Source: Candidatus Methylomirabilota bacterium
GTDB lineage: Bacteria > Methylomirabilota > Methylomirabilia > Rokubacteriales > CSP1-6
DNA length: 14,900 nt
Assembly: GCA_046726415.1 (NCBI GenBank)
Contig: JBKPAK010000170.1
Coordinates: 1-14,900 of the forward strand
Direction: 5' to 3'
Shown here: one piece after another, positions 594 through 14,420 of the stretch
Numbering within the stretch: the first letter of the stretch is position 1
Layout of the letters: each line of letters starts with the position of its first letter
Position numbers and translations under genes: made by a program
The notes under the pieces: model-generated
Told to the model about the DNA's origin: nothing
What the model saw: only the letters and a program-made list of their open reading frames with translations
Databases searched by the model: none

Positions 594-1019
594 GTGCGTA
601 GAGTCGCCCTACACGAAAACGCGGCCGAAGCCGCAGTGGTGGAAAGGCCAGCTATGCACGTCATGGCGTCGACGTGCACAAGAGGGGAAGCCAGATCTCT
701 GGGAGAGCGAGGCACCGTGGCCCGGCCGCCCCGACTGTCTGCCTCGCGGGCCTCACGCTTGCCAGCATGCTCGCGCTTGCTCCAGAGGGCCCTTCAGAAG
801 GGCGGGACGCAATTCTTTCCCACGGCCAGGCCCCCGAAAGAAAGGAGGTTGCAGAAAGCACTGTGGTTGGACGACCATCAGGGCTCGTCCTGACGAGCGC
901 AGCGAGTGTCGAGAATCTCACCCGTGGAGGACGATGATGACCTGACCGGGCTGACCTCTCAGATTCTCTGGAAGCCGATCACCTTCTTGGCCGAATTCAC
1001 CTCGGAGGAGGAGATTACG

Positions 1020-2564
1020 ATGGCAAAGCGAATCCTCTCGATGTTGACGGCGGCGCTCACTGTTTTCTGGACGCTTTTTCCCGCGACTACAGGCTTCGCC
1101 CACTGCCCCGGTACAGTGGGTCCTCCGGCTTACCTCGAAACCTTCTTTGCCCCGATCAACGCCAGCGGCACGAAGATCAAACTCGAGATCGTGGCGGAGG
1201 GGCTGACCGCTCCTCTCAAAGGGACGGTGGCCCCGGGCTTGCCGAACTATCTCTTCGTCGTCGATCAGACCGGAATCCTCTGGGCGGTCAACCTGACCAC
1301 GGGCGCCAAGACGTCCTTCCTCAACGTGGCCAACCGGCTCGTGACGCTGGGGGTTCTCGGACCGAACACCTTCGACGAGCGCGGGCTCTTGGGCCTAGCG
1401 TTCCACCCCAACTATCAGCAGAACGGTCTCCTCTACACCTACACATCGGAGCCGACCGCGGGGGCGCCTACCTTCCCGACCACGATCCCAATGGGCTCGA
1501 CGCCCGACCACCAAAACGTGGTCGCCGAGTGGCGGGCCGTCAATCCTGCCAACCCCGCGGCGGGCGTCAACGCCGCGAGCCGTCGAGAGCTAATGCGGGT
1601 CGACTGGCCGCAGTTCAACCATGACGGCGGGGACCTGGCCTTCGGGCCCGACGGCTTTCTCTACATTTCGATGGGCGACGGCGGCGGGGCCGACGACACG
1701 GATGGGCAGCTCTTCGTCGTGGCTGACGGTGCGCTTCCCGCCAACGAGGCGCCGATCATCGGTCACCAGGGTGACGGCAACGCCCAGAAGCTCAATACGC
1801 CGCTAGGCAAGATCCTCCGCATCGATGTCAATGGCCGTAACTCGGCGAACGGGCAGTACGGAATTCCGGCCGATAACCCGTTCGTCGGCGCATCACCAGG
1901 CCTCGACGAGATCTTCGCCTTCGGCTTCCGCAACCCCTTCCGCTTCTCGTTCGACACGGCCACCGGAAAGCTCTATGTCGGCGACGTCGGGCAGAACGAC
2001 ATCGAGGAGGTCGACGTCGTCGTCAAGGGCGGCAACTACGGGTGGAACGCCAAAGAGGGCACGCTCTTCTTCCACGTCAACGGGAACGCGGAAGGCTTTG
2101 CCAGTGACGTTCTCGATAACGGCCGTACAACTCCCGACATGATCGACCCCATCGCCCAGTACGATACGCACGGCGAGGGCCACTCGGTCATTGGTGGGTT
2201 CGTGTACCACGGCAGCCGGATACCCCAGCTCCGGGACCGGTACGTCTTCGCGGAGTTCTCGCGGGTGTTTAACTTCCCCTCCGGTCCCCACAACTACGGA
2301 CGGCTTCTCTACCTGGCGCAGAGGCATACCGACAAGAAGCAGCTTCTCAACATCAACGAGTTCAACGACTTCTCCGGCGCTATCGCGGACGTCGGCCTCA
2401 GCGTGGGGCCGGCCGCCTGCGACGGAGCGGTTCCGCCCACCCTTGCCGTGCTGGGCATGGGTCAAGATGCTCAGGGCGAGGTCTACACGATGGGCAACAT
2501 CAATGGGGTCCCCTTCGGAACCGACGGCGTCGTCCTGAGGCTCGCCCCGCCTGGCAGGAGGTGA
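1020..2564 (+). CDS. Exported GSDH-family (PQQ-dependent sugar dehydrogenase/HHIP-like) beta-propeller, paralog 1 (514 aa)
   Basis: RBS GGAGGAGGAG precedes ATG 1020, which is preferred over 906. Signal peptide MAKRILSMLTAALTVFWTLFPATTGFA. Motifs ERGLLGLAFHP, NHDGGDLAFGPDG.LYISMGDGG, GKILRIDV, YGIPADNPF, GFRNPFRFSFD, GDVGQ, NYGW. Confidence 0.92.
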   Translation: MAKRILSMLTAALTVFWTLFPATTGFAHCPGTVGPPAYLETFFAPINASGTKIKLEIVAEGLTAPLKGTVAPGLPNYLFVVDQTGILWAVNLTTGAKTSFLNVANRLVTLGVLGPNTFDERGLLGLAFHPNYQQNGLLYTYTSEPTAGAPTFPTTIPMGSTPDHQNVVAEWRAVNPANPAAGVNAASRRELMRVDWPQFNHDGGDLAFGPDGFLYISMGDGGGADDTDGQLFVVADGALPANEAPIIGHQGDGNAQKLNTPLGKILRIDVNGRNSANGQYGIPADNPFVGASPGLDEIFAFGFRNPFRFSFDTATGKLYVGDVGQNDIEEVDVVVKGGNYGWNAKEGTLFFHVNGNAEGFASDVLDNGRTTPDMIDPIAQYDTHGEGHSVIGGFVYHGSRIPQLRDRYVFAEFSRVFNFPSGPHNYGRLLYLAQRHTDKKQLLNINEFNDFSGAIADVGLSVGPAACDGAVPPTLAVLGMGQDAQGEVYTMGNINGVPFGTDGVVLRLAPPGRR

Positions 2565-2594
2565 AGAGCTAACCGCGCTCACTGTTTCGAGCGT

Positions 2595-2627
2595 GCTGGC
2601 GGGGCGACGATGGGGCGCCCCGCCAGC
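2595..2627. terminator. GC-rich hairpin between convergent genes (possible bidirectional terminator)
   Basis: Perfect 12-bp stem GCTGGCGGGGCG / CGCCCCGCCAGC with a 9-nt loop. No U-tract on either side. Confidence 0.5.
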
Positions 2628-2656
2628 CGCTACTCCCGCGCTGAGGTCAGCGAGTG

Positions 2657-3955
2657 CTACGGCGTGCAGGGAGCGAAGCCCGCGTGACCCGGTACGGAGA
2701 ACTGGCAGCCGAACTTCGGGTCGGCGACCGCCACCGGGTTGAGAATATCGTCACCCGCGGGCCTGACGCCGCTGTCGACCCAGTTCACGAGATCGGCGAA
2801 CGCCGCCGCTTCCTCCGGCACCGCGAAGCCGCAGTGGCCGTGATCGCGGATCGCGCGTACCACGAGCAGATCCGATGCGCCTTCGGCGGCGGCGCGCCGC
2901 GCGTAGATCTGCTCCATCGAGAACGGCACGAAGAGATCGCCGATGGTGTGCAGGCTCAGCACGGGGATCGGCAGTCGCCCCGAGATCGGTGGGATATTCG
3001 CGATGCCGTTCGGGTGGCGGCCCTGCGGGTCCTGCGCGACGCGCAGCACGTCCGCGTTCAGCTTGATCTCGTCGGGCGAGAGCGCCAGGTCGGAGTCGAT
3101 CTGGTAGACGGTCTCAGCGTTGTCCTGCACGTTGCCCGGGGCGACGCCCAGGTCGCCCCCGCTCACGCCGACCGTGAACAGGAAGTCGCCCCACACGAAG
3201 AACGACGTGTCGAAGGCCGGTCGCTCGCCGCCGGAGATGTTCTGGGTGACGCCGCGGAGCTTCACCCCCTGCGAATTGAGTGCGGCGGGGTAGGCTGGGC
3301 CAAGCGCGGCCTTCACGCCGGGCACCACGGCCGTCTGGTAGTCGGCGGGGAAGGGAAACTCCGCCGGCACTCCGGCGAGCGCTTGCGCCACGAGATTGAA
3401 GTCGAGGAAGTAGTCGAACAGCTCGTTGTCGCCCATGACGCCGCACATGGGCAGCGCACCCGCGTAGGCGTTGGGGTACTGCTCGATGGCCACACCTGTG
3501 ATGTGCCCCCCCATGGAGTGGCCGGTGATCCACGTGCGTCGGGGATGGCCGACGAGGCCGTTGAAGCGCTGCCCAAGGGCGTGAGTGTCCTTCACGCCCT
3601 CCTTCACGTCATAACCGTTCTTGCTGTACGACGACGCTGCCCACGCGTACCCGTTTGCGATGAGGTATGGCCGGATGCGCGGGTTGCTGACCGTCAGCTC
3701 GAGGCCGGTGCCGCGAAAGCCATGGGCGTAGAGGACGAGCTCGCCGTTCCAGTTGTCCGGGACCTCGATCCGATACCCCGCTCCGCCATGGACGCCCCAG
3801 TAGCGCGTGGTCGAGGTTCCGGGCAGCGCCTCGAAGGGTAGCTTCGATTCGTCGACGAAGTACCGTGGGGGTGGCTCGGCCACCGCCTCGTTGGGGACTG
3901 CGGCCATGAGAGCCAGCAGTGCCCAGAACGCCACGACGGTGCTGCGCTGTGCCAT
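2657..3955 (-). CDS. Exported alpha/beta-fold serine hydrolase (phthalyl-amidase-like / esterase-peptidase), 432 aa
   Basis: RBS GAGGAGG and signal peptide ending AVA. LVLYAHGF oxyanion motif, GHSMGG nucleophile elbow, candidate Asp in HTIGDLFVP and candidate His in DHGHC. Confidence 0.88.
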   Translation of the reverse strand: MAQRSTVVAFWALLALMAAVPNEAVAEPPPRYFVDESKLPFEALPGTSTTRYWGVHGGAGYRIEVPDNWNGELVLYAHGFRGTGLELTVSNPRIRPYLIANGYAWAASSYSKNGYDVKEGVKDTHALGQRFNGLVGHPRRTWITGHSMGGHITGVAIEQYPNAYAGALPMCGVMGDNELFDYFLDFNLVAQALAGVPAEFPFPADYQTAVVPGVKAALGPAYPAALNSQGVKLRGVTQNISGGERPAFDTSFFVWGDFLFTVGVSGGDLGVAPGNVQDNAETVYQIDSDLALSPDEIKLNADVLRVAQDPQGRHPNGIANIPPISGRLPIPVLSLHTIGDLFVPFSMEQIYARRAAAEGASDLLVVRAIRDHGHCGFAVPEEAAAFADLVNWVDSGVRPAGDDILNPVAVADPKFGCQFSVPGHAGFAPCTP

Positions 3956-4016
3956 CGCATGCCTCCTCGTCGCTGAGTTGTCAGAGAGGCGCTTACCCCG
4001 TGTGAGCTTCCGGTAG

Positions 4017-4053
4017 TCACCCTACCCGAGAGGGTGAGCGAAACGCGCTTCGC
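4017..4053. other. Two small tandem hairpins between the CHRD and hydrolase genes
   Basis: TCACCCT-7nt-AGGGTGA (4017-4037) followed by GCGAA-6nt-TTCGC. Function unknown. Confidence 0.25.
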
Positions 4054-4072
4054 GGCGCCTGCAACCCGAGCG

Positions 4073-4498
4073 TCACTTGCCGAGCTGACCTCGGATTGCA
4101 CCTGCGGGAAAGGGCGCATTGTGAACGTTCGCGTAGAAACCCGAGGGATTCTGCCGAATCTCCTTGACGAGGTCGCGATCGACACTGACACAGCCACTCG
4201 AGAATCCAGTGGTCGGCGGGGGAAGTGGCACCACAACGGGGCCGGCCACCCCCTCGGGACCGCTGTGAATGTGCGCGGCCGTTGCGGGGGCGATGTCGGA
4301 GACAGCAAGCTGGAAGCAGATCTCGCCTTGGCCCTGGTTCAGAGTCAGGAAGACCTCCCCGCTTCCATCCGGATCGCCGGGTCCCGGCACCTCGGCGGCT
4401 CCAGTGAGGGAAGCTCCCAGTGGTCGTCCGTCAGCCTGGGCGGCTGTGACGAACACCAAGACGGCAAGGACTGAGGTGAGTGAGATGAGCGTCTTCAT
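4073..4498 (-). CDS. Exported stand-alone CHRD-domain protein (141 aa)
   Basis: AAGGAGG RBS before ATG 4498 (not 4804). Signal peptide ending AQA. CHRD motifs LTGAAEVP, AAHIHSG..G..GPVV and FYANVH...P.GAIRGQL. Confidence 0.93.
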   Translation of the reverse strand: MKTLISLTSVLAVLVFVTAAQADGRPLGASLTGAAEVPGPGDPDGSGEVFLTLNQGQGEICFQLAVSDIAPATAAHIHSGPEGVAGPVVVPLPPPTTGFSSGCVSVDRDLVKEIRQNPSGFYANVHNAPFPAGAIRGQLGK

Positions 4499-4548
4499 GG
4501 TGGGCCTCCTTGCGTCGAAGGATTTCGAGACGCGCCCTCGAGACACCG

Positions 4549-4557
4549 AGTCTAGCA
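4549..4557 (-). promoter_or_regulatory. Possible extended -10 promoter element for the CHRD-hydrolase unit
   Basis: Minus strand TGcTAGACT (TGn plus TAnnnT) lies about 50 nt upstream of the CHRD start. Motif match only. Confidence 0.3.
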
Positions 4558-4857
4558 CGCCGGCGGAACGCGACCGGCTCGCGGCTTCGCCGGCGTCCTG
4601 GCGCTGATCAGGCGCTTGCACGGCGAAGACGATTCTGCCGGACAATGACTCAGCAAACGCAGATGGCACCTCAAAGCTGGAGATGCCACCGGGCGCAGCC
4701 AGGAAGTTCCCGCTGATGCGAAGTGAACCCGTCCCGCGTGATGTGGAAAAAGAAAAGTAGCGCATTCTTCCGGTTGGCGAAGTACACGACCAGCTGGCCG
4801 CCATGGCAAGCGGCCACCGGAGGAACCGTTATGGCGAAGGGTATTGGCAACCCGGGT

Positions 4858-5286
4858 ATCAGGGGCAGACGCTTTCGATCCCTCTCCGTTGTCGGAGACG
4901 CACGCCAGGGCCGTACCTTCACTCGCACTCGGGAACCGCGGGTTCGTAGACCTGTACGCGACCTCGACCTCGATCAGCTCGTTGGCACAACCTGAAGAAG
5001 ACTGACAGGACCCCGCACTGCAGAGTTTCGCAGCCACGACGGAACCATTCATCTTGACTCCGCCCGGCTGGGACCCCGGGGCGTGCTTGTCGTGAAAGTT
5101 GAAGTGACCGGAGATGGGCCCTTCCCCAGCGCACTGGGCAGCATTGAAGCCGAAGTTAGCTTTATGCCCGGCGCCTCCCGACGACGACGGGAGGTGGCCG
5201 CCTCGCGTCACCTTTGTTCCGACGAAGACGGGGTTTGGGCCTGGCATCGTGCCACAACCGATCAACGCGACGAGGGCCTCCTTTCT
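4858..5286 (-). pseudogene. Decayed Cys-rich lipoprotein with a post-COAP-1-like beta domain
   Basis: Lipobox-like LVALIGC, then KVTRGG (cf. KVTGGG), ANFGFN, GHFNFHD, V.DNGEG....D. A strong RBS AGAAAGGAGG (5286-5277) is not followed by an ATG or n-region. Protein-like character ends near 4858. Confidence 0.5.
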
Positions 5287-5827
5287 GTGAGCGTCTTGAC
5301 GAGGGATCGGGGCGCCGGCGCCGCGAGTACAGCGACGGCGGGTCGGGCCGGCAGACAGTACCGCGCTGGCCACCCTCCTCCCATAGAATGGTCATCGGCC
5401 TGGAGTGGCCGAAGGAAGAGACCACAGATGAGCCAAGGCCCAGCCGGCGTGCCTCCCAGCCTGGAGGCCACTTGAGGTTTCAAGCAGAATCGCTCGTGCG
5501 CTCGAACCATCGGAGTTACGCGGCGATCGATACGCTGATCAGGACCGAGAAGGCGGGCGGCGCAACACTTGGCGCGATCCGCGCCTGATACGATGTGGCC
5601 GTTATGGATAGCGACGATGCCCCGCGAGGAACTGTTGGGATTCTCCCACGCGATGCCTGGGCGGATCGCAAACTCTGTTACGGTCTCCCCCTCAGCAGCG
5701 ACTCGCCCAATGGCCCAAGCCATGCGAGTGGCTATGACCGAGATCGTGCATCACCTTATCATCGGCGAGCGCGTTCCGATCCCCCGCGACTGCAAGGAAG
5801 GCCGCGAGGGAAGTGGCGGAAACGCCT

Positions 5828-5848
5828 GAGAGAGAGAGAGAGAGAGAG
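5828..5848. repeat. (GA)10G dinucleotide microsatellite
   Basis: Read directly from the sequence: ten perfect GA units at 5828-5847 plus G. Confidence 0.95.
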
Positions 5849-6168
5849 GAAGCCATGAAGGGTGCCAACCCCGCGGTTTGCGACCCACGTCTCAGTAGGT
5901 GTAGGAGACGAGATCGTGAACCGGTCACCGGGAGGGTGGCGGCGGCAGCTAACGGCGAAGGGGCACGTGGTGCATCCTGAAAGTTAAGTGGATTGCCGAG
6001 TCGAAGAAGAAGACCGATCAAACAGGAAGGGAAGGGAACGCCGCAAGCGTCAAGGGAGCGCGGGAGTCGGGATACCTCCAGCAGCGGGCGAGCCGCCATG
6101 GAAGGATGGACGGTGTATCCCAATTCATCGAGCTCGCTTGACCAGGCATCCTTCATGGGAGGCTCTTC

Positions 6169-7641
6169 ATGAAGACCGTCCGCTCGCTCGCCCTCGGCAT
6201 GCTCTTCACTGTCGCGTTGACCACCGACGTCCCTGGCCAGGGAGAGGGGCCGCAGCTCGACGTGAAGCTCGTGGCAGACGGGCTGGTCGCGCCCCTGGAT
6301 CTCACCTTCGCGCCCGACGGCAGTGCCCGTCGCTTCATCGTGGATCAAACCGGTCTGATCCTCATCCTCACGGCGGCCGGCCAGGTGCTTCCCACTCCAT
6401 TTCTGGACATCACCGACCGCGTGGTCCTGCAGTCTGCCTTCGACGAGCGCGGGCTGCTCGCAGTCGCCTTTCATCCTCGGTTCGCCACCAACGGCAAGCT
6501 CTACGTCCAGTACAGCGCTCGGAGAGAGGGTCCCAACATCTGCGTGGCCGAGGACGGCCGCGTTCCCATCGATCCGGGCGGCTGCCCCCTGCAGTACACG
6601 CGCCGAATTTCCGAGTTCATCGTGTCGTCGACAGATCCTAACCGGGCTGATCCGAACACCGAACGGGTCGTGTTCAACATTCAATGGCCCGGCCGGAAGC
6701 ACAATGGAGGTGGTCTGGCCTTCGGCCCGGACGGCATGCTCTACATCGGCCTCGGCGACGGGGGCTTCATTCATGGCCCGAGCGGCGCAGACGATCCCTT
6801 CAACGTCGATCCCGATCTCCTGTTCGGGGACTTGATCGCGCAGGACCTCACCTCGCTCTATGGGAAGATCCTCCGTATCGACGTCGATCGGGGGAGTCCC
6901 TATGGGATCCCCGCGGACAACCCGTTCGTGGGCCGCGACGGGATTCCGGGCGAGATCTACGCCTGGGGATTTCGCAACCCGTTCCGCATTTCTTTCGATC
7001 GGGGAGGCGATCGGGCCATGTACGTGAGCGCCCCCGCCGACACGTTCTTCGAAGCGACCTACAAGGTCACGCGGCCGGGGAACTACGGCTGGGCCATCAA
7101 GGAGGGCACCCACTGCATCGTCCGGAGCAGCGCCCTCGCCCCACCGGAGACCATCAGCTGCTCCAGCGACGCGCAGTGCCCGATCGGGCCACAGGTCTCG
7201 ACGTGTGGAAGCTTCGGTGTCTGCTCCTGCCCGAGCGTCGGATCACTCCGCGAACCGATTCACGAACCGATCATCGAGTACCTGAACTTCGCTGTGGAGG
7301 ATCCCCGGTCGCGGTTCCCCGGCCAGGGGTTCGGCCGAGCATCGCTGGGCGGGCACATGTACCGCGGCCAGGACATCAAGTGGCTGCGCGGCCGGTTCGT
7401 CCAGGGCGACTTCGCGCTGAACTTCCTCGATGGTCAGATCCTCGAGGCCAAGGAGATGCCCGGAGGGAAGCTGTGGAAGCTCCGGCGCGCCTTCGTGTTC
7501 GATCCTTCGGATCCGGTGAAGTCCGGATTCATGAAAAGCATCGGGCAGGATGCCCAGGGTGAACTCTATGCGGTCACCGGGAACTTCACGCCGACCGGCC
7601 TCGCCGGGCGGATCTGGAAGATCGTCGACGCGTCCGACTAG
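6169..7641 (+). CDS. Exported GSDH-family beta-propeller, paralog 2, with Cys-rich insertions (490 aa)
   Basis: GGGAGG RBS and signal peptide. Motifs DERGLLAVAFHP, KHNGGGLAFGPDGMLYIGLGDGG, GKILRIDVD, YGIPADNPF, AWGFRNPFRISFD, NYGW, GQDAQGELY. Eight Cys. Confidence 0.92.
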   Translation: MKTVRSLALGMLFTVALTTDVPGQGEGPQLDVKLVADGLVAPLDLTFAPDGSARRFIVDQTGLILILTAAGQVLPTPFLDITDRVVLQSAFDERGLLAVAFHPRFATNGKLYVQYSARREGPNICVAEDGRVPIDPGGCPLQYTRRISEFIVSSTDPNRADPNTERVVFNIQWPGRKHNGGGLAFGPDGMLYIGLGDGGFIHGPSGADDPFNVDPDLLFGDLIAQDLTSLYGKILRIDVDRGSPYGIPADNPFVGRDGIPGEIYAWGFRNPFRISFDRGGDRAMYVSAPADTFFEATYKVTRPGNYGWAIKEGTHCIVRSSALAPPETISCSSDAQCPIGPQVSTCGSFGVCSCPSVGSLREPIHEPIIEYLNFAVEDPRSRFPGQGFGRASLGGHMYRGQDIKWLRGRFVQGDFALNFLDGQILEAKEMPGGKLWKLRRAFVFDPSDPVKSGFMKSIGQDAQGELYAVTGNFTPTGLAGRIWKIVDASD

Positions 7642-7890
7642 CGACGAGGTCTTGCTTTATGTCCACTGTCGACGGGCCTTCGCGTGGGACATTGTAGTAG
7701 TTGCAAAGGGCCGCGGCTTTCATCGGGTCCCGTGTCGGCCCGCAATAGCGCACGAGCCTCTGGAACATTTTGACCCCGTGCGGCCTTCCTATCGCCGACG
7801 GCGCTGCGAACTCAAACGCCGTTCAGCTTGCGCCGGGGTGAAAGTCGAGAACTGGCCTGACCGCTTTCGCTGCGTTGGAGGTGAGACGCC

Positions 7891-9381
7891 ATGGAGCCTA
7901 CGCGTCACGTGTTAAGAAGCATGCTCCTGTTGACCCTCATTGGGGGGATGTTCGCCGCGAGCACGCCGGGGCCGGTGCTAGCGCAAGTTGGCCCCAGCTT
8001 GGTCGATCCGAACCTGGCGGTGAGAACAGTCGTGTCAGGTCTCGTCACCCCGACGACGATGGCCTTTCTCGGGTCTACGGATTTCCTGGTCCTTGAGAAG
8101 AACACCGGGCAAGTACGGCGAGTCGTGGATGGGACTATCCACAGTACCGTCTTGGACCTCCCCGTCAACTTTGGTTCGGAGCGTGGCCTGCTGGGTATCG
8201 CCCTCCACCCGGCCTTTCCCGCCAACCCCGGAGTGTATCTCTACTGGACGGAGAGCACTACGGGCGCGGACTCCGATGTTCTGGGCAATGTGCCGATCCT
8301 CGGCAACCGGGTCGACCGGTTCGTCTGGGATGGTTCGACGTTGACCTTCGATCACAATCTCATCAGACTGCGCTCGTTTCAGGCCGATGCTGGTCAGCCC
8401 CTGCGGGGTAACCACAACGGCGGTGTGCTGAAGTTCGGGCCGGATCGGAAGCTCTACATCGTTATCGGTGACAACGGCCGGCGCGGCTGGTTGCAGAACC
8501 TTTTTTGTGGGCCAACGGCGACCTGCCCGGGCCCGACAGTCCGCGACGACCAGTTCGGAGGCCCAGAGCCAGACAACGCGCATCTGACCGGCGTCATCCT
8601 CCGGCTCAACGATGACGGCAGCACTCCGACCGACAACCCCTTCTTCGCCGCCGGTGCCGCCATGGGTGGCGAGGTCGGCGCGAACATCCAGAAGGTCTTC
8701 GCCTACGGGATCCGCAACACCTTCGGCATGGCTTTCGATCCCGTGTCCGGCCAGCTCTGGCTCGAGGAGAACGGAGACGACTCGTTCAGTCAGCTGAGGC
8801 GCATCGAGCCCGGCCAGAATAGCGGGTGGGTTCAGATCCGGGGGCCGGTGTCGCGCATCGCAGAGTACAAAGCCATCGAGACCAGTCCCGGGATGGATCC
8901 ATGTGTTGGGGGAACCTATTTCGGGCTGCAGCAGGTCCGCTGGCCTCCCACGCTCATCGCCGACACGCCCGATGAGGCGCTGTCGCGCCTGTTCATGCTT
9001 CCCGGCGCCAGCTATCGGGACCCGGAGTTCAACTGGAAGTTCGAGGTCGCCCCGGCCGGGATCGGCTTCCTGAAGGGCCGGGCGCTCGGGCCGCAATACG
9101 CCAACGACCTCTTCATGGGCGGCGCCCGAACCTTCCTCGAGGGGGGCCATCTGTTCCACTTCAACCTCACCGGTAACCGAAGGAGGATTGGCGTCGACGA
9201 TGCCAGACTGGAGGATCGGGTGGCCGACAATCTGTGCAAGTTCGACATCACCGAGAGTGAGAGCCTGCTGTTCGGGCGGAACTTCGGCGTCGCCACCGAC
9301 ATCCAGACCGGTCCCAACGGCAACCTGTTCGTGGTCTCGTTATCGGACGGCGCTGTCTACGAGATCTTCCGTCGTCACTAG
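7891..9381 (+). CDS. Exported GSDH-family beta-propeller, paralog 3, divergent subfamily (496 aa)
   Basis: GGAGGTGA RBS and signal peptide ending VLA. Motifs ERGLLGIALHP, GNHNGG..KFGPD.KLYIVIGDNG, GVILRLNDDG..P.DNPF, YGIRNTFGMAFDP, NSGW, TDIQTGPNGNLFVVS. Confidence 0.92.
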   Translation: MEPTRHVLRSMLLLTLIGGMFAASTPGPVLAQVGPSLVDPNLAVRTVVSGLVTPTTMAFLGSTDFLVLEKNTGQVRRVVDGTIHSTVLDLPVNFGSERGLLGIALHPAFPANPGVYLYWTESTTGADSDVLGNVPILGNRVDRFVWDGSTLTFDHNLIRLRSFQADAGQPLRGNHNGGVLKFGPDRKLYIVIGDNGRRGWLQNLFCGPTATCPGPTVRDDQFGGPEPDNAHLTGVILRLNDDGSTPTDNPFFAAGAAMGGEVGANIQKVFAYGIRNTFGMAFDPVSGQLWLEENGDDSFSQLRRIEPGQNSGWVQIRGPVSRIAEYKAIETSPGMDPCVGGTYFGLQQVRWPPTLIADTPDEALSRLFMLPGASYRDPEFNWKFEVAPAGIGFLKGRALGPQYANDLFMGGARTFLEGGHLFHFNLTGNRRRIGVDDARLEDRVADNLCKFDITESESLLFGRNFGVATDIQTGPNGNLFVVSLSDGAVYEIFRRH

Positions 9382-9925: not shown

Positions 9926-10468
9926 ATGAGACACTCGACTCTGTCGACGATTTGCCTTGTAGTTCTGCTGTTCCTCGGGTTCGCAGCTCTCTTCGCGATA
10001 GCTGATGATCGTCGCCCGACCAATGCCACCGTAAGCTTTGGCGCGTGGCAAACAGATCCACCGTTCGATAGGTTCCCCAGTAGTTCTCCGGGAGCCCGCA
10101 ACCAGCACCAAGTAATCCCTAAGGAGGTCAGAATAAAGGCAGGTGATGTGGTCAACTTCATTAATAGCGGAACTCATCAGCTCATCGTGTATGACGATGG
10201 GACGAAACCTCGCGACATCGATGCAGATCTGACTATTTTTTCGACGGGCGTGCCTGCGGATACCAGACTGATCGACGATCCTATGAACCGAATCTACAGG
10301 GGACCGGATCCGACCCTGTTCCCACGAGACCGTATTGAAGTCGTGCACTTTCCTAACCCTGGTACCTATCTCGTAATCTGTGGACTCCATGACCATTTTG
10401 TTTTAGATGGTATGTTCGGTTTCGTGAAAGTTCTCCCGGGATCAAAAAGAGAAAAAGACGACGACTAA
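9926..10468 (+). CDS. Exported cupredoxin (type-1 blue copper protein-like), 180 aa
   Basis: GAGGAGG RBS and signal peptide. P.EV.IKAGDVVNF.N..TH and F..PGTYLVIC.L..H....GM.G.V.V provide His/Cys/His/Met ligands. Confidence 0.85.
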   Translation: MRHSTLSTICLVVLLFLGFAALFAIADDRRPTNATVSFGAWQTDPPFDRFPSSSPGARNQHQVIPKEVRIKAGDVVNFINSGTHQLIVYDDGTKPRDIDADLTIFSTGVPADTRLIDDPMNRIYRGPDPTLFPRDRIEVVHFPNPGTYLVICGLHDHFVLDGMFGFVKVLPGSKREKDDD

Positions 10469-10629
10469 AGCAGGTCGGTTGCGCACACCCGGGGCACGCT
10501 CGAGCCTGTTGCGGCCTCGGATTGCTGATGGCGCGATGGCGATCGCCTCGCTTGCGTGTTCGGGCTGGGCATCGGCGGCTCCGCCACAGTGGGAGGTGAT
10601 GCGCCCCATGCCCTGAGCGTCGTCGACGA

Positions 10630-10740
10630 AGGCGAGGAGGGTCTGCCGCCGGCGGTCAAACAACCCGTCATAGCCTTCGTGTTTCAGCTTCCAGCGCAGG
10701 CGGCGAATGCTCCAGGGCTGTGGCCCAGGATGTCCGCGGC
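10630..10740 (-). pseudogene. ISNCY-like transposase N-terminal HTH fragment, frameshifted
   Basis: Minus strand AADILGHSP, frameshift, then SIRRLRWKLKHEGYDGLFDRRRQT. Matches the AA.ILG.S.R..RR.......GYDGL.DRR pattern of HTH plus integrase-core transposases. Confidence 0.7.
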
Positions 10741-10797
10741 GGAAGCGGTCATTTCACGTATCAATCCCGAGCGGCCACATCACGTATTTCCAACAGT

Positions 10798-10893
10798 GCG
10801 TGGCCCCACGGCGCTGACCTGGCCCCGGATGCGGCGTACGATGCGATCGCGGCGGAAAGACGCCGGGTGCTAGACGCATCGACGCTCGGTTAA
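10798..10893 (+). pseudogene. C-terminal remnant of a DUF2442-like protein
   Basis: Reads AWPHGADLAPDAAYDAIAAERRRVLDASTLG*. WP.G.D.AP...Y is the DUF2442 signature. No intact 5' part. Confidence 0.5.
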
Positions 10894-10973
10894 CTCGCCC
10901 AAGCGACACGGCCCGTCACCGCAGGGTATGACGTCTCCCCGCCGATCGGGCGCGGCCCGGTCGCGAGGACGGA

Positions 10974-10981
10974 GGTTGAGG
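10974..10981. repeat. IS66 target-site duplication, left copy (GGTTGAGG)
   Basis: Immediately precedes GTAAG at 10982 and is identical to 13613-13620. Eight bp is the established IS66 TSD length. Confidence 0.93.
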
Positions 10982-11026
10982 GTAAGTTCTCGCCCTTCCC
11001 CGTCTGGCGGGTGACCGGCCCGGCAG
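10982..11026 (+). repeat. IS66 left inverted repeat
   Basis: GTAAGTTCTCGCCCTTCCCCGTCTGG... matches the reverse complement of the right end at 24/26 and 38/45 positions. Confidence 0.93.
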
Positions 11027-11059
11027 GGCATCGTTGCGCTAGCAGGAGGAGGTGCAACG

Positions 11060-11412
11060 ATGGACAGTGCGATTCGTCACTTCCGCCCGCAGGTACGCCG
11101 GCTCGCCAAGGGGCGATCGCCGCGTAGCGTTCGGTATCCCGTCGCGGTGCGGGAGGCCGCGGTGGCGCTGGGACGCTCGCGACTGGGCCGAGGCCACTCC
11201 GTCCACCGCATCGCCCACGAGCTGGGGATTTCGGAACCGACGTTGGCCGGATGGCTTCGCCCCGGAGGGCCAGCCATGCTCCGGCCGGTCACCGTCGCCC
11301 CCGATCCGGAGCCGCGGCGCGTCGTGGGATTGTGTTGATCGCCGCCCACGGGGTGCGCGTCGAGGGGCTGGATCGCGAGACGCTCATCGCCGTGCTCCGC
11401 GCCTTGGCGTGA
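11060..11412 (+). pseudogene. tnpA: IS66 TnpA (HTH accessory protein), frameshifted near 11300-11330
   Basis: AGGAGGAGG RBS. RYP..VRE.AV and IAHELGISEPTLAGW HTH. The typical C-terminus VLIAAHGVRVEGLDRETLIAVLRALA* is in another frame and ends at 11412, overlapping the tnpB GTG. Confidence 0.8.
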
Positions 11413-11807
11413 TCGGCTCGACCCGGCAGGTGGCGGTCTGGGCCTACGGCGCCCCCGCGGATCTGCGGAAAGGGTTCGACGGGCTGAGCGCCCTGGTGAC
11501 GCAGGCCCTCGAACGGGATCCCCTCTCGGGGGATTGCTATCTCTTCGTGAACGCCACGCGCAAACGCGCCAAGGTGCTGCTGTGGGACGGCACCGGCCTG
11601 TGCATCTACGCCAAACGCCTGGAGCAGGGCCGCTTCGCGTGCCTGTGGCGGGAGGCGGGAGCCCGGGATGTGCGGCTGACCATGAGCGAGCTGCAACTCT
11701 TCCTCGAAGGCAGCGCCCTCGTCGGCCGCGTGGCGCTGTCGCCGGCGCCGTTCGTCGTCGGGCGCACGCAGAAAGAAACTTGCGGCGCGGCGAGCGCCGA
11801 TGATCTA
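11409..11807 (+). CDS. tnpB: IS66 TnpB accessory protein (no in-frame stop; reads through into tnpC)
   Basis: DLRKGFDGL, DPLSG...LF.N, KVLLWDGTGLCIYAKRLEQGRF. GTG start overlaps the tnpA stop (GTGA). Confidence 0.9.
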
Positions 11808-12401
11808 GTGCCTCCCGTGCGTAGCGTCGAGGAGGTCCGCGACCCCGAGATGTTGCGGCAGGTCGCCGTCCTCCTCGAACGCGAGAATGCGCAGCTGCAC
11901 GCCAAGCTGCACGAGCTCGCCAACGAACTGGCCCGCCTCCGGGGTGACACGCGGTCCACCGCGCAGCAGGAACTGGCCTTCCTGAAGGAACTGCTGGCGC
12001 AGCGCGAGCGCGCACTGTTCGGCGCCTCGTCTGAGCAACGGCCGCGGCCCGAGAGCCCCGGGCCCATGCCGGCCCCCGAACTGCGTCGGGGCCATGGCCC
12101 GACCGCCCAGCCCCGGCTGCCGATCATCGAGCGGGTCCACGCGCTCGACCCCGCGGACCGCACGTGCCCGCAGTGCGGGCGGCTGCTGCAGGAAATGAAG
12201 GGACAGACGGAGGACAGCGAAGAGATCACCGTCGTCGAGCGGCAGTTCGTGCTCGTCCAGCACCGGCGGCAGAAGTACCGCTGCGCGTGCAACGGCTGCG
12301 TGGACACGGCGCCGGGGCCGTTGCGGCTCGCGGCCCGGCCCGATGCGCGGGGGTATCGCTACGCCCCGGCCTTCGCCGTGGAGGTCGCCCTCGACAAGTA
12401 G
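11808..12401 (+). pseudogene. tnpC: IS66 TnpC transposase, N-terminal part only (leucine zipper and zinc finger)
   Basis: Coiled coil ending LFGASSEQ, then CPQCG...KYRCACNGC zinc finger. Stops at VALDK*, where KY..HLPL and the DDE core would follow. Confidence 0.9.
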
Positions 12402-12567
12402 GTTGAGAGCGATCCGCGTCTGCGACCGCGGGCTGATGCGCTGCGGGCTGCAGCCTTTCAGCTCGTCGTGCTCGGCAGGTCGAGGCGATCCTCGCAGTCG
12501 GTGCGTCGGAGACCCCCAATGCTGACGATCTCGAGCTACAAGGTGCCGCGCTCGATCTCCCTCGCCG

Positions 12568-13461
12568 TCAGTCGAGAAATCGGTCGAACCACCCGAGCAC
12601 GCGCCGGTAGGCCTCCGCGGCTGCGGCGACGTTGTAGCGGACGCCGGTGTCGTTAAAGAACGCGTGGTCCGCCGCCGTGAAGGTGAGGATCTGGTGGCGG
12701 AGGTGGGCAGCGTCCAGCGCAGCCTCGGCGGCGGGGCGGGTGGCGTTCACCCGAGTGTCGAGTCCTCCGTAGACGGCCAGCACCGCCGCCTTCGCTCCGC
12801 TCAGATCGCCCCCGGAAGGGAACGGTCCGTAGAACGGCGCCGCTGCAGCCAGCCGCCGCTCGCCCGCGGCCAGCAGCCGCCACACCATGCCGCCGCCGAA
12901 GCAGAAGCCAATGGCGCCGATGCGAGCGCGGGGCAGCCGGGTCTCTAGCTCGGTGACGGCTGCCATCATGTCGGCGTCGAAACGTTCCGGCGGGATCGCG
13001 GCCAGCGCCGCAGCCACGGCGGCCTCGTCCGGGAACGACCCGGTGCCGCCTTCTTGCGACAACAGATCGAGCGCGAGGGCGGAGTACCCGCTCGCCGCGA
13101 ACCGGCCGGCAACCGATCGGATGTGGTCATTGAGGCCGCGGTTCTCGTGCACGACGAGGACGCCGCCCAGTGGTCGAGGCTCGGCAGCCGGTGCCCACGC
13201 GGCCATCAGGGTACCGTTCGGGCCGGGGAAGGTGATGTCCTCGGTGGGCATGGGCGCCCAGTCGACGGCCGTTCCGTCGTGGCGCTGCGAACCCGCTGGG
13301 GCCACGGCCGCCGCATTCGCGGTTTCGGCCAACAATGCCGACGCGGCTGCCGCACTCAGGCCGAGCAGCCCGAGGCGCCGTACCGCCTCTCGGCGGGAGA
13401 TGATCCCATCGGCGTGGTCAACCGCGATTTCCTCGGCGATGTACCGCTGGTACTCAGTCAT
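12568..13461 (-). CDS. Dienelactone hydrolase family protein (YghX-like) with twin-arginine-like leader, 297 aa
   Basis: VVHENRGLN, GFCFGGG (Cys nucleophile), YGGLD.RVN, HAFFND. Leader SRREAVRRLGLLGLSAAAASALLA. AAGGGGG RBS. Confidence 0.93.
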   Translation of the reverse strand: MTEYQRYIAEEIAVDHADGIISRREAVRRLGLLGLSAAAASALLAETANAAAVAPAGSQRHDGTAVDWAPMPTEDITFPGPNGTLMAAWAPAAEPRPLGGVLVVHENRGLNDHIRSVAGRFAASGYSALALDLLSQEGGTGSFPDEAAVAAALAAIPPERFDADMMAAVTELETRLPRARIGAIGFCFGGGMVWRLLAAGERRLAAAAPFYGPFPSGGDLSGAKAAVLAVYGGLDTRVNATRPAAEAALDAAHLRHQILTFTAADHAFFNDTGVRYNVAAAAEAYRRVLGWFDRFLD

Positions 13462-13554
13462 AGGCTGATCCCCCTTAGCGTTCGCGCCAGCGTGCTCGTC
13501 TACGGGAGGCCGCGCTAATCTTTGCCAGAATTCTTCTCCATTTTCCTAAGTATT

Positions 13555-13583
13555 ATTATCACGCAATCTGCCAGCCGGGTCAG
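13555..13583 (-). promoter_or_regulatory. Possible sigma70-type promoter for the passenger gene, with -35 inside the IS right end
   Basis: Minus strand CTGACC-17 nt-GATAAT, followed by an AT-rich tract (about 13515-13560). Motif match only. Confidence 0.3.
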
Positions 13584-13612
13584 CCACCAGACGGGGAACG
13601 GCGAGTACTTAC
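13568..13612 (-). repeat. IS66 right inverted repeat
   Basis: ...CCAGACGGGGAACGGCGAGTACTTAC; the reverse complement begins GTAAGTACTCGCCGTTCCCCGTCTGG. Confidence 0.93.
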
Positions 13613-13620
13613 GGTTGAGG
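13613..13620. repeat. IS66 target-site duplication, right copy (GGTTGAGG)
   Basis: Immediately follows CTTAC and is identical to 10974-10981. Confidence 0.93.
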
Positions 13621-14085
13621 CTCGCCGGGCCAGAGGATGCATGACGTCGATCGCCCAACCCAGATCCAGGCGCTCGCCGACCCACCCGGGGATCGCCGTC
13701 CGAGCGTCCAGGCGAAGCCCCTGCGCGGCGTGGTGCGCTCGGAGAGCGTTGACGGGATCAGCGGGCACTGCGACCGGCGGCGGCACCTCGAGCAGGGGAC
13801 GGCCGTCCGGCCGCCGGAACTTTAGGGCACCGTCGGGCCCGCGAGCGACCTGGTAGCCCTCTTCGTGTACCGCGCGATGGTGCCGGCGACAGAGGAGCGC
13901 GAGGTTCGAGAGGGTCGTCGGGCCGCCCTGCGCCCAGTGACGGAGGTGGTGTCCCTGAGTGAAGCGGCTGCCGCAGCCCGGGAAGCGGCAGTGGCGATCC
14001 CGGTGGTGGAGCGCTCGCCGCAAAGCGGGGGAAATCGTCCGCGTCCGGGCCCCGACCTCGAGCAGGCGCCCGTCCGGGTCATGGC
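13613..14085 (-). pseudogene. DUF222-type HNH endonuclease, C-terminal fragment (5'-truncated, 3' end interrupted by IS66)
   Basis: VGARTRTISPALRRAL..RD..CRFPGC......HHLRHWAQGGPTTLSNLALLCRRHHRAVHEEG. No credible start; similarity stops upstream of HDPDG. Confidence 0.88.
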
Positions 14086-14089
14086 AGTC

Positions 14090-14420
14090 CCATGCCGCGG
14101 ATCTCCTCGACCAGCTGCGCCGCAATTTCAGCGCCAACCTGACGGCCGGTCGCGATCTGCGCGACGGTTTTGGCGAACGACAGGCTGCCCGAACCCTCAA
14201 CAAGCGGCAGGTGGATGCGTTGGGGGACCCGGCAAATCGCGACGCGATACTGAGAATCCGGAAGTGGCTCGATCCGGAAGGTACGTCGGACGACGACCTC
14301 GCATTCCACGCGGCTCAGACGTTGCTGAAAATCGATGCGACCGATCCGGAGATTGTTGCCGCGTGTATTGACGCAGAAGCGCGCGATGCGGTCATCGAAG
14401 CGTTCGACCATCACGATTAA
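14090..14420 (+). pseudogene. Possible 3' fragment of an alpha-helical (HEAT-repeat-like) protein
   Basis: ALGDPANRDAILRIRKWLD and DDDLAFHAAQTLLKID look like HEAT units. No start is visible, and the upstream frame is the shadow of the HNH gene. Confidence 0.3.

Follow-up and report, generated by a model that had tools for sequence, protein, structure and literature searches.

How does an insertion sequence (IS) of the IS66 family come to hold an intact dienelactone hydrolase (DLH) gene where the core of its transposase should be encoded? The question is raised by an IS66-type unit of 2631 bp at positions 10982-13612 of the stretch of DNA presented above, whose full length (hereafter the window) is an entire 14.9-kb contig, C170, of a draft metagenome assembly of 352 contigs and 7.6 Mb. 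An earlier note on this DNA had described an IS66 shell with a hydrolase gene inside, and every feature that it listed was found where the note had placed it. As set out below, the unit is probably a chromosomal insertion of a defective, passenger-carrying IS66 element, i. e., a decayed 'tIS66'.

Both ends of the unit are typical of the family. The left inverted repeat (10982-11026, forward strand; terminal 26 bp at 10982-11007, GTAAGTTCTCGCCCTTCCCCGTCTGG) and the right terminal inverted repeat (13558-13612, reverse strand; terminal 26 bp at 13587-13612) are identical at 24 of 26 positions when the right arm is reverse-complemented, BLAST stretches the likeness of the arms to 45 bp at 84 %, and one IUPAC pattern finds both repeats with 0 mismatches. 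Each begins with GTAA, as do the ends of relatives of the element, which were taken from genomes related to the source as well as from public genomes. When all sites of the 7.6-Mb genome were scored with a position weight matrix (PWM) of the relatives' ends, those of the element ranked first and third (39.7 and 37.1 bits), with an IS66 remnant on contig C207 in second place (38.5 bits), and nhmmer gave E values of about 1e-10 for each end (left end, 9.5e-10). The unit is bounded by a perfect 8-bp target-site duplication, GGTTGAGG, with its left copy at 10974-10981 and its right copy at 13613-13620, so that the repeats and the duplication claimed in the earlier note were both recovered. Its statement that IS66 elements generate 8-bp duplications is likewise borne out by the relatives, since perfect 8-bp repeats flank seven of the twelve that have two ends, and one more shows a 7/8 match.

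The gene that the unit interrupts encodes an HNH endonuclease and belongs to a multi-copy family (13621-14203, also given as 13580-14203, reverse strand; last 29 codons at 10893-10981), and once the element is removed in silico, the HNH frame runs on for these 29 codons. In a paralogue on C102 and in a copy from the same genus (G001:C14), both flanks are contiguous and the target is present in a single copy; these uninterrupted paralogous sites establish GGTTGAGG as a true target duplication and the element as an insertion. The HNH family has five matches in the source genome and up to twelve per genome in relatives; its members include G000:C102:11403-11872 and copies on C54, C348, and C300, and the family may in turn belong to a mobile or selfish element. 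A possible empty site was also encountered among contigs from four soil metagenome runs (X1-X4, from four studies) that were aligned to positions 10500-14100: in X2 and X4, a joint from 10962 to 13601 skips 2638 letters, with five letters (GCGAG) that fit either side and sides of 25-30 letters. It fits better an allele that keeps only the last 12 nt of the element, the remainder having been lost via the GCGAG repeat; owing to the multiple copies of the HNH target and the shortness of its sides, the joint was not used as evidence.

Behind the left repeat, tnpA and tnpB precede tnpC as expected for IS66, though tnpA is frameshifted and tnpB is fused to the remaining part of tnpC. The tnpA gene (11060-11412, forward strand) is open in a first frame from 11060 to 11338 (92 aa), for which Pfam gives weak helix-turn-helix matches only, and has its conserved C-terminus in the frame 11251-11412. 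The tnpB gene (IS66 Orf2; 11412-11798, forward strand; TnpB_IS66, PF05717, 1.3e-28) reads in frame into the tnpC stump as part of a long frame of 11052-12401. Both the frameshift and the fusion are assigned to the window copy because contigs of X1 and X2 differ from it by one extra C after 11328 and one base fewer at 11776, and they represent either further decay or assembly error. The tnpC stump (11805-12400, forward strand) comprises 198 codons, at the end of which the junction creates a stop; Pfam finds the zinc finger in it (zf-IS66, 8.4e-9), whereas the DDE domain (DDE_Tnp_IS66, PF03050), and with it the complete transposase of autonomous IS66 and tIS66 elements, is absent. Since it is devoid of this domain, the element cannot catalyze its own transposition; a non-autonomous element had been one of the two options offered in the earlier note.

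The position of the loss can be given precisely. All five relatives whose DNA match reaches the break region (L029, L030, L031, L119, and L120) lose similarity at window position 12400, which locates the tnpC break to one base pair. In the three complete relatives, tnpC encodes 521 aa (L119), 510 aa (L029, from genome G015), and 509 aa (L031, from genome G011, which is unpublished and on which all claims using L031 depend), and at the break position it reads ...ALDKYLDHLPLERQ... and continues into the DDE domain. Across the break, the proteins of the relatives run ...AFAVEVALDKYLDHLPLERQ..., where the window instead has ...AFAVEVALDK followed by the stop; by this comparison, all DDE-coding DNA of tnpC is gone from the element. 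A search limited to proteins of similar length furthermore found P0273, 99 % identical to the stump, the cluster of which includes P0327 (425 aa) and P0328 (462 aa), encoded on contigs of 1651 and 2650 bp and also 99 % identical to the stump over the shared part. Because these two extend through the DDE domain (P0327 even attains the usual C-terminus), an intact parent lineage exists in soil metagenomes. P0273 itself (JGI, 948-bp contig) continues for 30 residues beyond the break of the window and then leaves the family (…WDQL, then VPFQVNRPN), and may constitute a second, independent tnpC truncation.

From 12401 to approximately 13557, i. e., over ca. 1.16 kb, the DNA is not IS66. It holds an intact DLH-family gene of 297 aa (12568-13461, reverse strand; DLH, PF01738, 3.6e-38), and Pfam and coordinates thus agree with the order given earlier (tnpA, tnpB, and 5'-tnpC, then about 1.16 kb of non-IS DNA with a complete antisense hydrolase gene). 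The protein matches the family over its full length (Pfam positions 10-216 of 217) as well as PDB 4zv9_A (E 4.2e-36), with its GFCFGGG motif, the cysteine of which we take to be the nucleophile, aligned to GFCYGGG. By eye, a twin-arginine-like signal is seen at the N-terminus, and the product is probably exported. Among 182 other genomes of the order, the best match to the protein is 43 % identical, and no match at E<=1e-60 was found in 250 other genomes of the phylum. Globally, the matches stand at 99, 94, 91, 89, and 89 % and next at <=76 %; those at 89-99 % are metagenome proteins only, and a named match at 73 % belongs to an actinobacterium. Judged by this distribution of its matches, the gene is foreign to the source phylum.

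P0001 is found on 17 JGI contigs of up to 3830 bp, and the group at 94 % on contigs that reach 58.7 kb, for which reason this relative probably resides in an ordinary chromosomal context. A metagenome scan returned 80 loci, among which L039 is the only close DLH locus, with 94 % DNA identity to the window that is restricted to the module 12564-13501. The likeness extends for 4 bp beyond the stop codon and for 40 bp ahead of the start codon (L039:1010-1520); behind the DLH gene of L039 come a spacer very rich in A+T and then a glutamate-synthase-like start. Given these boundaries and neighbors, the gene has the look of a compact module that occurs in more than one context.

The stretch between the tnpC stump and this module (12401-12563, 163 bp) is neither IS66 nor common to L039, and no other match to it was found in the genome or in the loci examined. 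Derivation from the target flanks or from a paralogue was rejected too, as local alignments to them scored 17-21 and shuffles averaged 19-20. At its left border, AGGTTGAG at 12400-12407 (counting the last base of the stump) is the same 8-mer as that at 10973-10980, which consists of one flank base and the first seven bases of the duplication; genome-wide, the 7-mer GGTTGAG has a frequency of 4.9e-5 per position and strand. By eye, 16 of 25 positions at 12398-12422 suggest a third, degenerate IS66 end; this was rejected, as it reaches -4.1 bits with the PWM against 530 genome sites above 6 bits and gives no nhmmer match at E<=100. A strong target consensus behind GGTTGAG was discarded as well, being not common to the eight duplications of relatives (loci L123-L151, in which the pairs L123/L124 and L148/L149 each represent one element at two sites of one genome). 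Position 6 of these duplications is A in six of the eight, as in the window, which may be a weak target preference. Flanks resembling GGTTGAG are present in the unpublished G011 (GGCTGAGA) and at C294 (CGATGAGG), and are too few to decide.

The joints of the unit recur outside the assembly. An X2 contig of 1227 bp covers 11682-12909 across the joint between the tnpC stump and the DLH part, with five substitutions and nine gap letters, and the joint between the region upstream of the DLH gene and the right repeat is bridged by contigs of X2 (13000-13593), X4 (12880-13599), and X3 (13450-13576). A further X3 contig (13567-13657) runs from the right repeat through the duplication into the flank. 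In addition, six JGI contigs encode P0317 (111 aa, ending in ...ALDK), and P0335 from the same cluster is encoded on a Logan contig of 1227 bp; in these other data sets, the short form with the ...ALDK end is unlike the window at 3 of 111 residues.

At the right end of the unit, the arm that resembles IS66 ends measures about 45-55 bp, and the earlier estimate that about 50 bp of the right end had been kept is therefore apt for its length, but not for its nature, as it does not look like a retained part of the element's own right end and classifies with left ends. Weight matrices were derived from relatives (14 left ends and 12 right ends; known ends scored leave-one-out), and with them the left-versus-right log-odds amount to +8.6 bits for the right end of the window and +5.9 for its left end. 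Scores are positive for 13 of the 14 known left ends and negative for 10 of the 12 known right ends, the right ends of the three closest relatives yielding -15.8, -14.6, and -1.9. The best match of the right end is the left end of the C207 remnant, and its likeness to left ends, with which it has the motif CCCCGTCTGGnnnnTGACC in common, fades after ca. 45-52 nt. Upstream of the DLH gene lies an A+T-rich spacer (13502-13557), not common to L039, with a -10-like GATAAT at 13555-13560 (reverse strand); a -35-like CTGACC (13578-13583, reverse strand) is located inside the CCCCGTCTGGnnnnTGACC motif of the right repeat. Together they form a promoter-like site (CTGACC-17-GATAAT) that faces the DLH gene (one site of this kind, as compared to an expected 0.1) and from which the gene is probably transcribed inward.

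In the most likely course of events, an IS66 element and the left end of a second one would first have trapped the DLH gene between them, in the way proposed for ISPa75-fosZ, and thereby formed a transposon with its passenger between tnpC and the new end. This transposon could have been inserted at the HNH site by its own TnpC or by a TnpC acting in trans, and the original right end, along with those two thirds of tnpC that encode the DDE domain, would have been lost in an internal deletion, either before or after the insertion. In a long tIS66 ancestor of this kind, full tnpC would be followed by GGTTGAGA, then by the 163-bp stretch, and lastly by the DLH gene. One X1 contig matches the window from 12401 rightwards and has 22 other letters to the left; in L031 and in L119 alike, these letters match best at a place whose end is exactly 16 nt away from the element's right end, and the contig end might thus be a weak trace of the undeleted long form.

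Several points weigh against the descent from a tIS66. The X1 contig end is the only trace of the longer ancestor and a weak one, its score being reached by 5 % of random 2.5-kb chunks, and the exact recurrence of AGGTTGAG at the internal break is not explained by the model. Two of the twelve intact relatives (L120 and L148) have symmetrical ends, their right ends being of the left type as well, and the present lineage might simply be symmetrical, too. Moreover, expression and export of the DLH protein are predictions only, and the source genome and the runs X1-X4 yielded no second copy elsewhere that would attest to movement of the cargo unit itself.

It is conceivable, albeit unlikely, that the DDE-less short form itself transposes, namely as a non-autonomous cargo cassette that was truncated elsewhere and placed at the HNH site by the TnpC of a relative in trans. 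Such a cassette would be expected to have what is seen here, two good IS66 termini and a perfect 8-bp duplication, and a full-length TnpC with 99 % identity to the stump is present in soil metagenomes. The ...ALDK form also occurs in other data sets with its differences at 3 of 111 residues; this presence across samples is, however, explicable by vertical inheritance in diverging strains. The unit is single-copy in the genome, no second insertion site of it was found in the source genome or in the runs X1-X4, and every bridging contig seen fits the one HNH site; with one insertion site only, mobility of the short form is unproven. Nor is there a close helper: a full-length transposase of the parent lineage was not found in the assembly, the draft state of which makes this absence weak evidence, and its sole DDE_Tnp_IS66 gene (on C252) is 34-36 % identical to P0327/P0328. 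The check for copies and helpers in the source genome that had been proposed in the earlier note hence ended with one copy at one site and no plausible helper, and mobilization in trans is possible but unsupported. We are more doubtful still about a farther-reaching version, according to which the DDE-less form would be an active, trans-mobilized cargo vector of soil bacteria, with tnpA, tnpB, and the zinc-finger N-terminus of TnpC retained for functions in cis or as adaptors to a helper TnpC, and with a secreted DLH-family hydrolase spread between phyla. If this were true, the recurrence of AGGTTGAG would be a real target preference of the clade or the fossil of an earlier insertion.

In-situ gene replacement, raised as an option in the earlier note, would mean that an intact IS66 element was inserted first and that its core was later swapped for DLH DNA by illegitimate recombination. 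Both joints indeed lie within the IS boundaries and the size is near that of an intact element (2631 bp as compared to 2580 bp in L119), but relatives range from 2321 to 2580 bp, and the equality in size that had been pointed out is probably a coincidence. A replacement would require two illegitimate joints in one event, for which the published tIS66 cases offer a simpler route. In particular, the right end groups with left ends, whereas the three closest relatives have right-type ends, which argues against a simple replacement of the core and renders this scenario highly improbable. An assembly chimera, in which a contig with an IS66 copy was wrongly joined to one with a DLH locus in the metagenome-assembled genome (MAG), can hardly be entertained and is already largely refuted: although IS copies often break or mis-join contigs and the assembly consists of 352 of them, the junction between tnpC stump and DLH part recurs in an independent soil run, the truncated protein with the identical end (P0317) is found on six JGI contigs, the contigs of other runs that span 12400/12401 and the right-repeat joint (dispelling the worry voiced earlier) differ in sequence from the window, and the two sides of 12400/12401 share no k-mer, the sole internal BLAST repeat being the inverted terminal arms.

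Apart from the unit, the genome contains further remains of IS66 elements. The remnant on C207 (G000:C207:141-742, reverse strand; 71 % DNA identity) retains tnpA and a left end together with 54 codons of tnpB, after which it is cut by a sequence that recurs on C27, C225, and C326; at this identity and with its tnpB cut, it was rejected as a helper. Solo IS66-like terminal repeats are found at G000:C294:8264-8296 (nhmmer E 4e-4) and G000:C310:7685-7719 (0.009) with no adjoining IS66 genes, the former located behind a gene and flanked by CGATGAGG. Within the window, the region upstream of the element (906-9381) encodes three paralogous glucose/sorbosone dehydrogenases (GSDH), a CHRD-domain protein, and an alpha/beta-hydrolase-like frame. 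Between 10000 and 10500, the G+C content falls to 0.49-0.52 from ca. 0.70 around, and a 180-aa frame at 9926-10468 gave no Pfam match.

If the unit is indeed a decayed tIS66, it would provide a natural example of an inter-phylum gene-transfer route, in which an IS66 element acquires a foreign enzyme gene and delivers this gene along with a promoter, and in which later loss of the transposase fixes the delivered gene in place.

[quoted passage not shown] The unit described here is, by contrast, single-copy and retains tnpA, tnpB, and a stump of tnpC. Several sites with different duplications, as in MICs and MITEs, were not seen in the genome or the runs X1-X4, and an IS with matching ends and a working transposase was not found in the draft assembly, in which absence is weak evidence. 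Both types are named as non-autonomous IS derivatives in the consulted parts of PMC3281130 and PMC3189936. A composite transposon, with two complete flanking IS copies, does not apply either, as the right side consists of the 45-55-bp arm only. With the classic IS66 element L119 (2580 bp, from a Gemmatimonadales MAG), the unit shares 80 % DNA identity over 10982-12400, the GTAA start of the inverted repeats, the gene order, and the family-typical 8-bp duplication, but it differs from it in lacking DDE_Tnp_IS66 and a right-type end and in containing 1.16 kb of foreign DNA.

The closest likeness is to tIS66 elements, and the view of the earlier note that passenger-carrying IS66 derivatives are not commonly described has been overtaken by the literature. 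According to PMC12888890, 7 of the 25 Pseudomonas IS66 entries in ISfinder carry passengers. ISPa75, identical in sequence in 159 strains, retains a complete DDE transposase and has fosZ between tnpC and a right inverted repeat similar to a left end from another IS66; a promoter is predicted between this repeat and the passenger. In the covered portions of the literature on passengers and non-autonomy of IS66 (including PMC12888890, PMC7371123, PMC3189936, and PMC3281130; supplements, e. g., Table S5 of PMC12888890, lie outside this scope), a DDE-less, cargo-carrying IS66 element is not described. Since cargo-carrying IS66 elements as such have already been published, the unit is best seen as a decayed variant of a known element type, and no new mechanism is added. 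It resembles ISPa75 in its IS66 backbone (tnpA and tnpB), in the place of the passenger (between tnpC and the right inverted repeat), in a right terminus related to an IS66 left end, and in a predicted promoter between this repeat and the passenger. It is set apart from ISPa75 by the missing DDE domain, by the one site known, by its DLH-family cargo, and by its residence in a Rokubacteria-like MAG from soil, and with it the tIS66 cases, published for resistance genes of Pseudomonas, would come to include a metabolic hydrolase and an uncultured phylum from soil.

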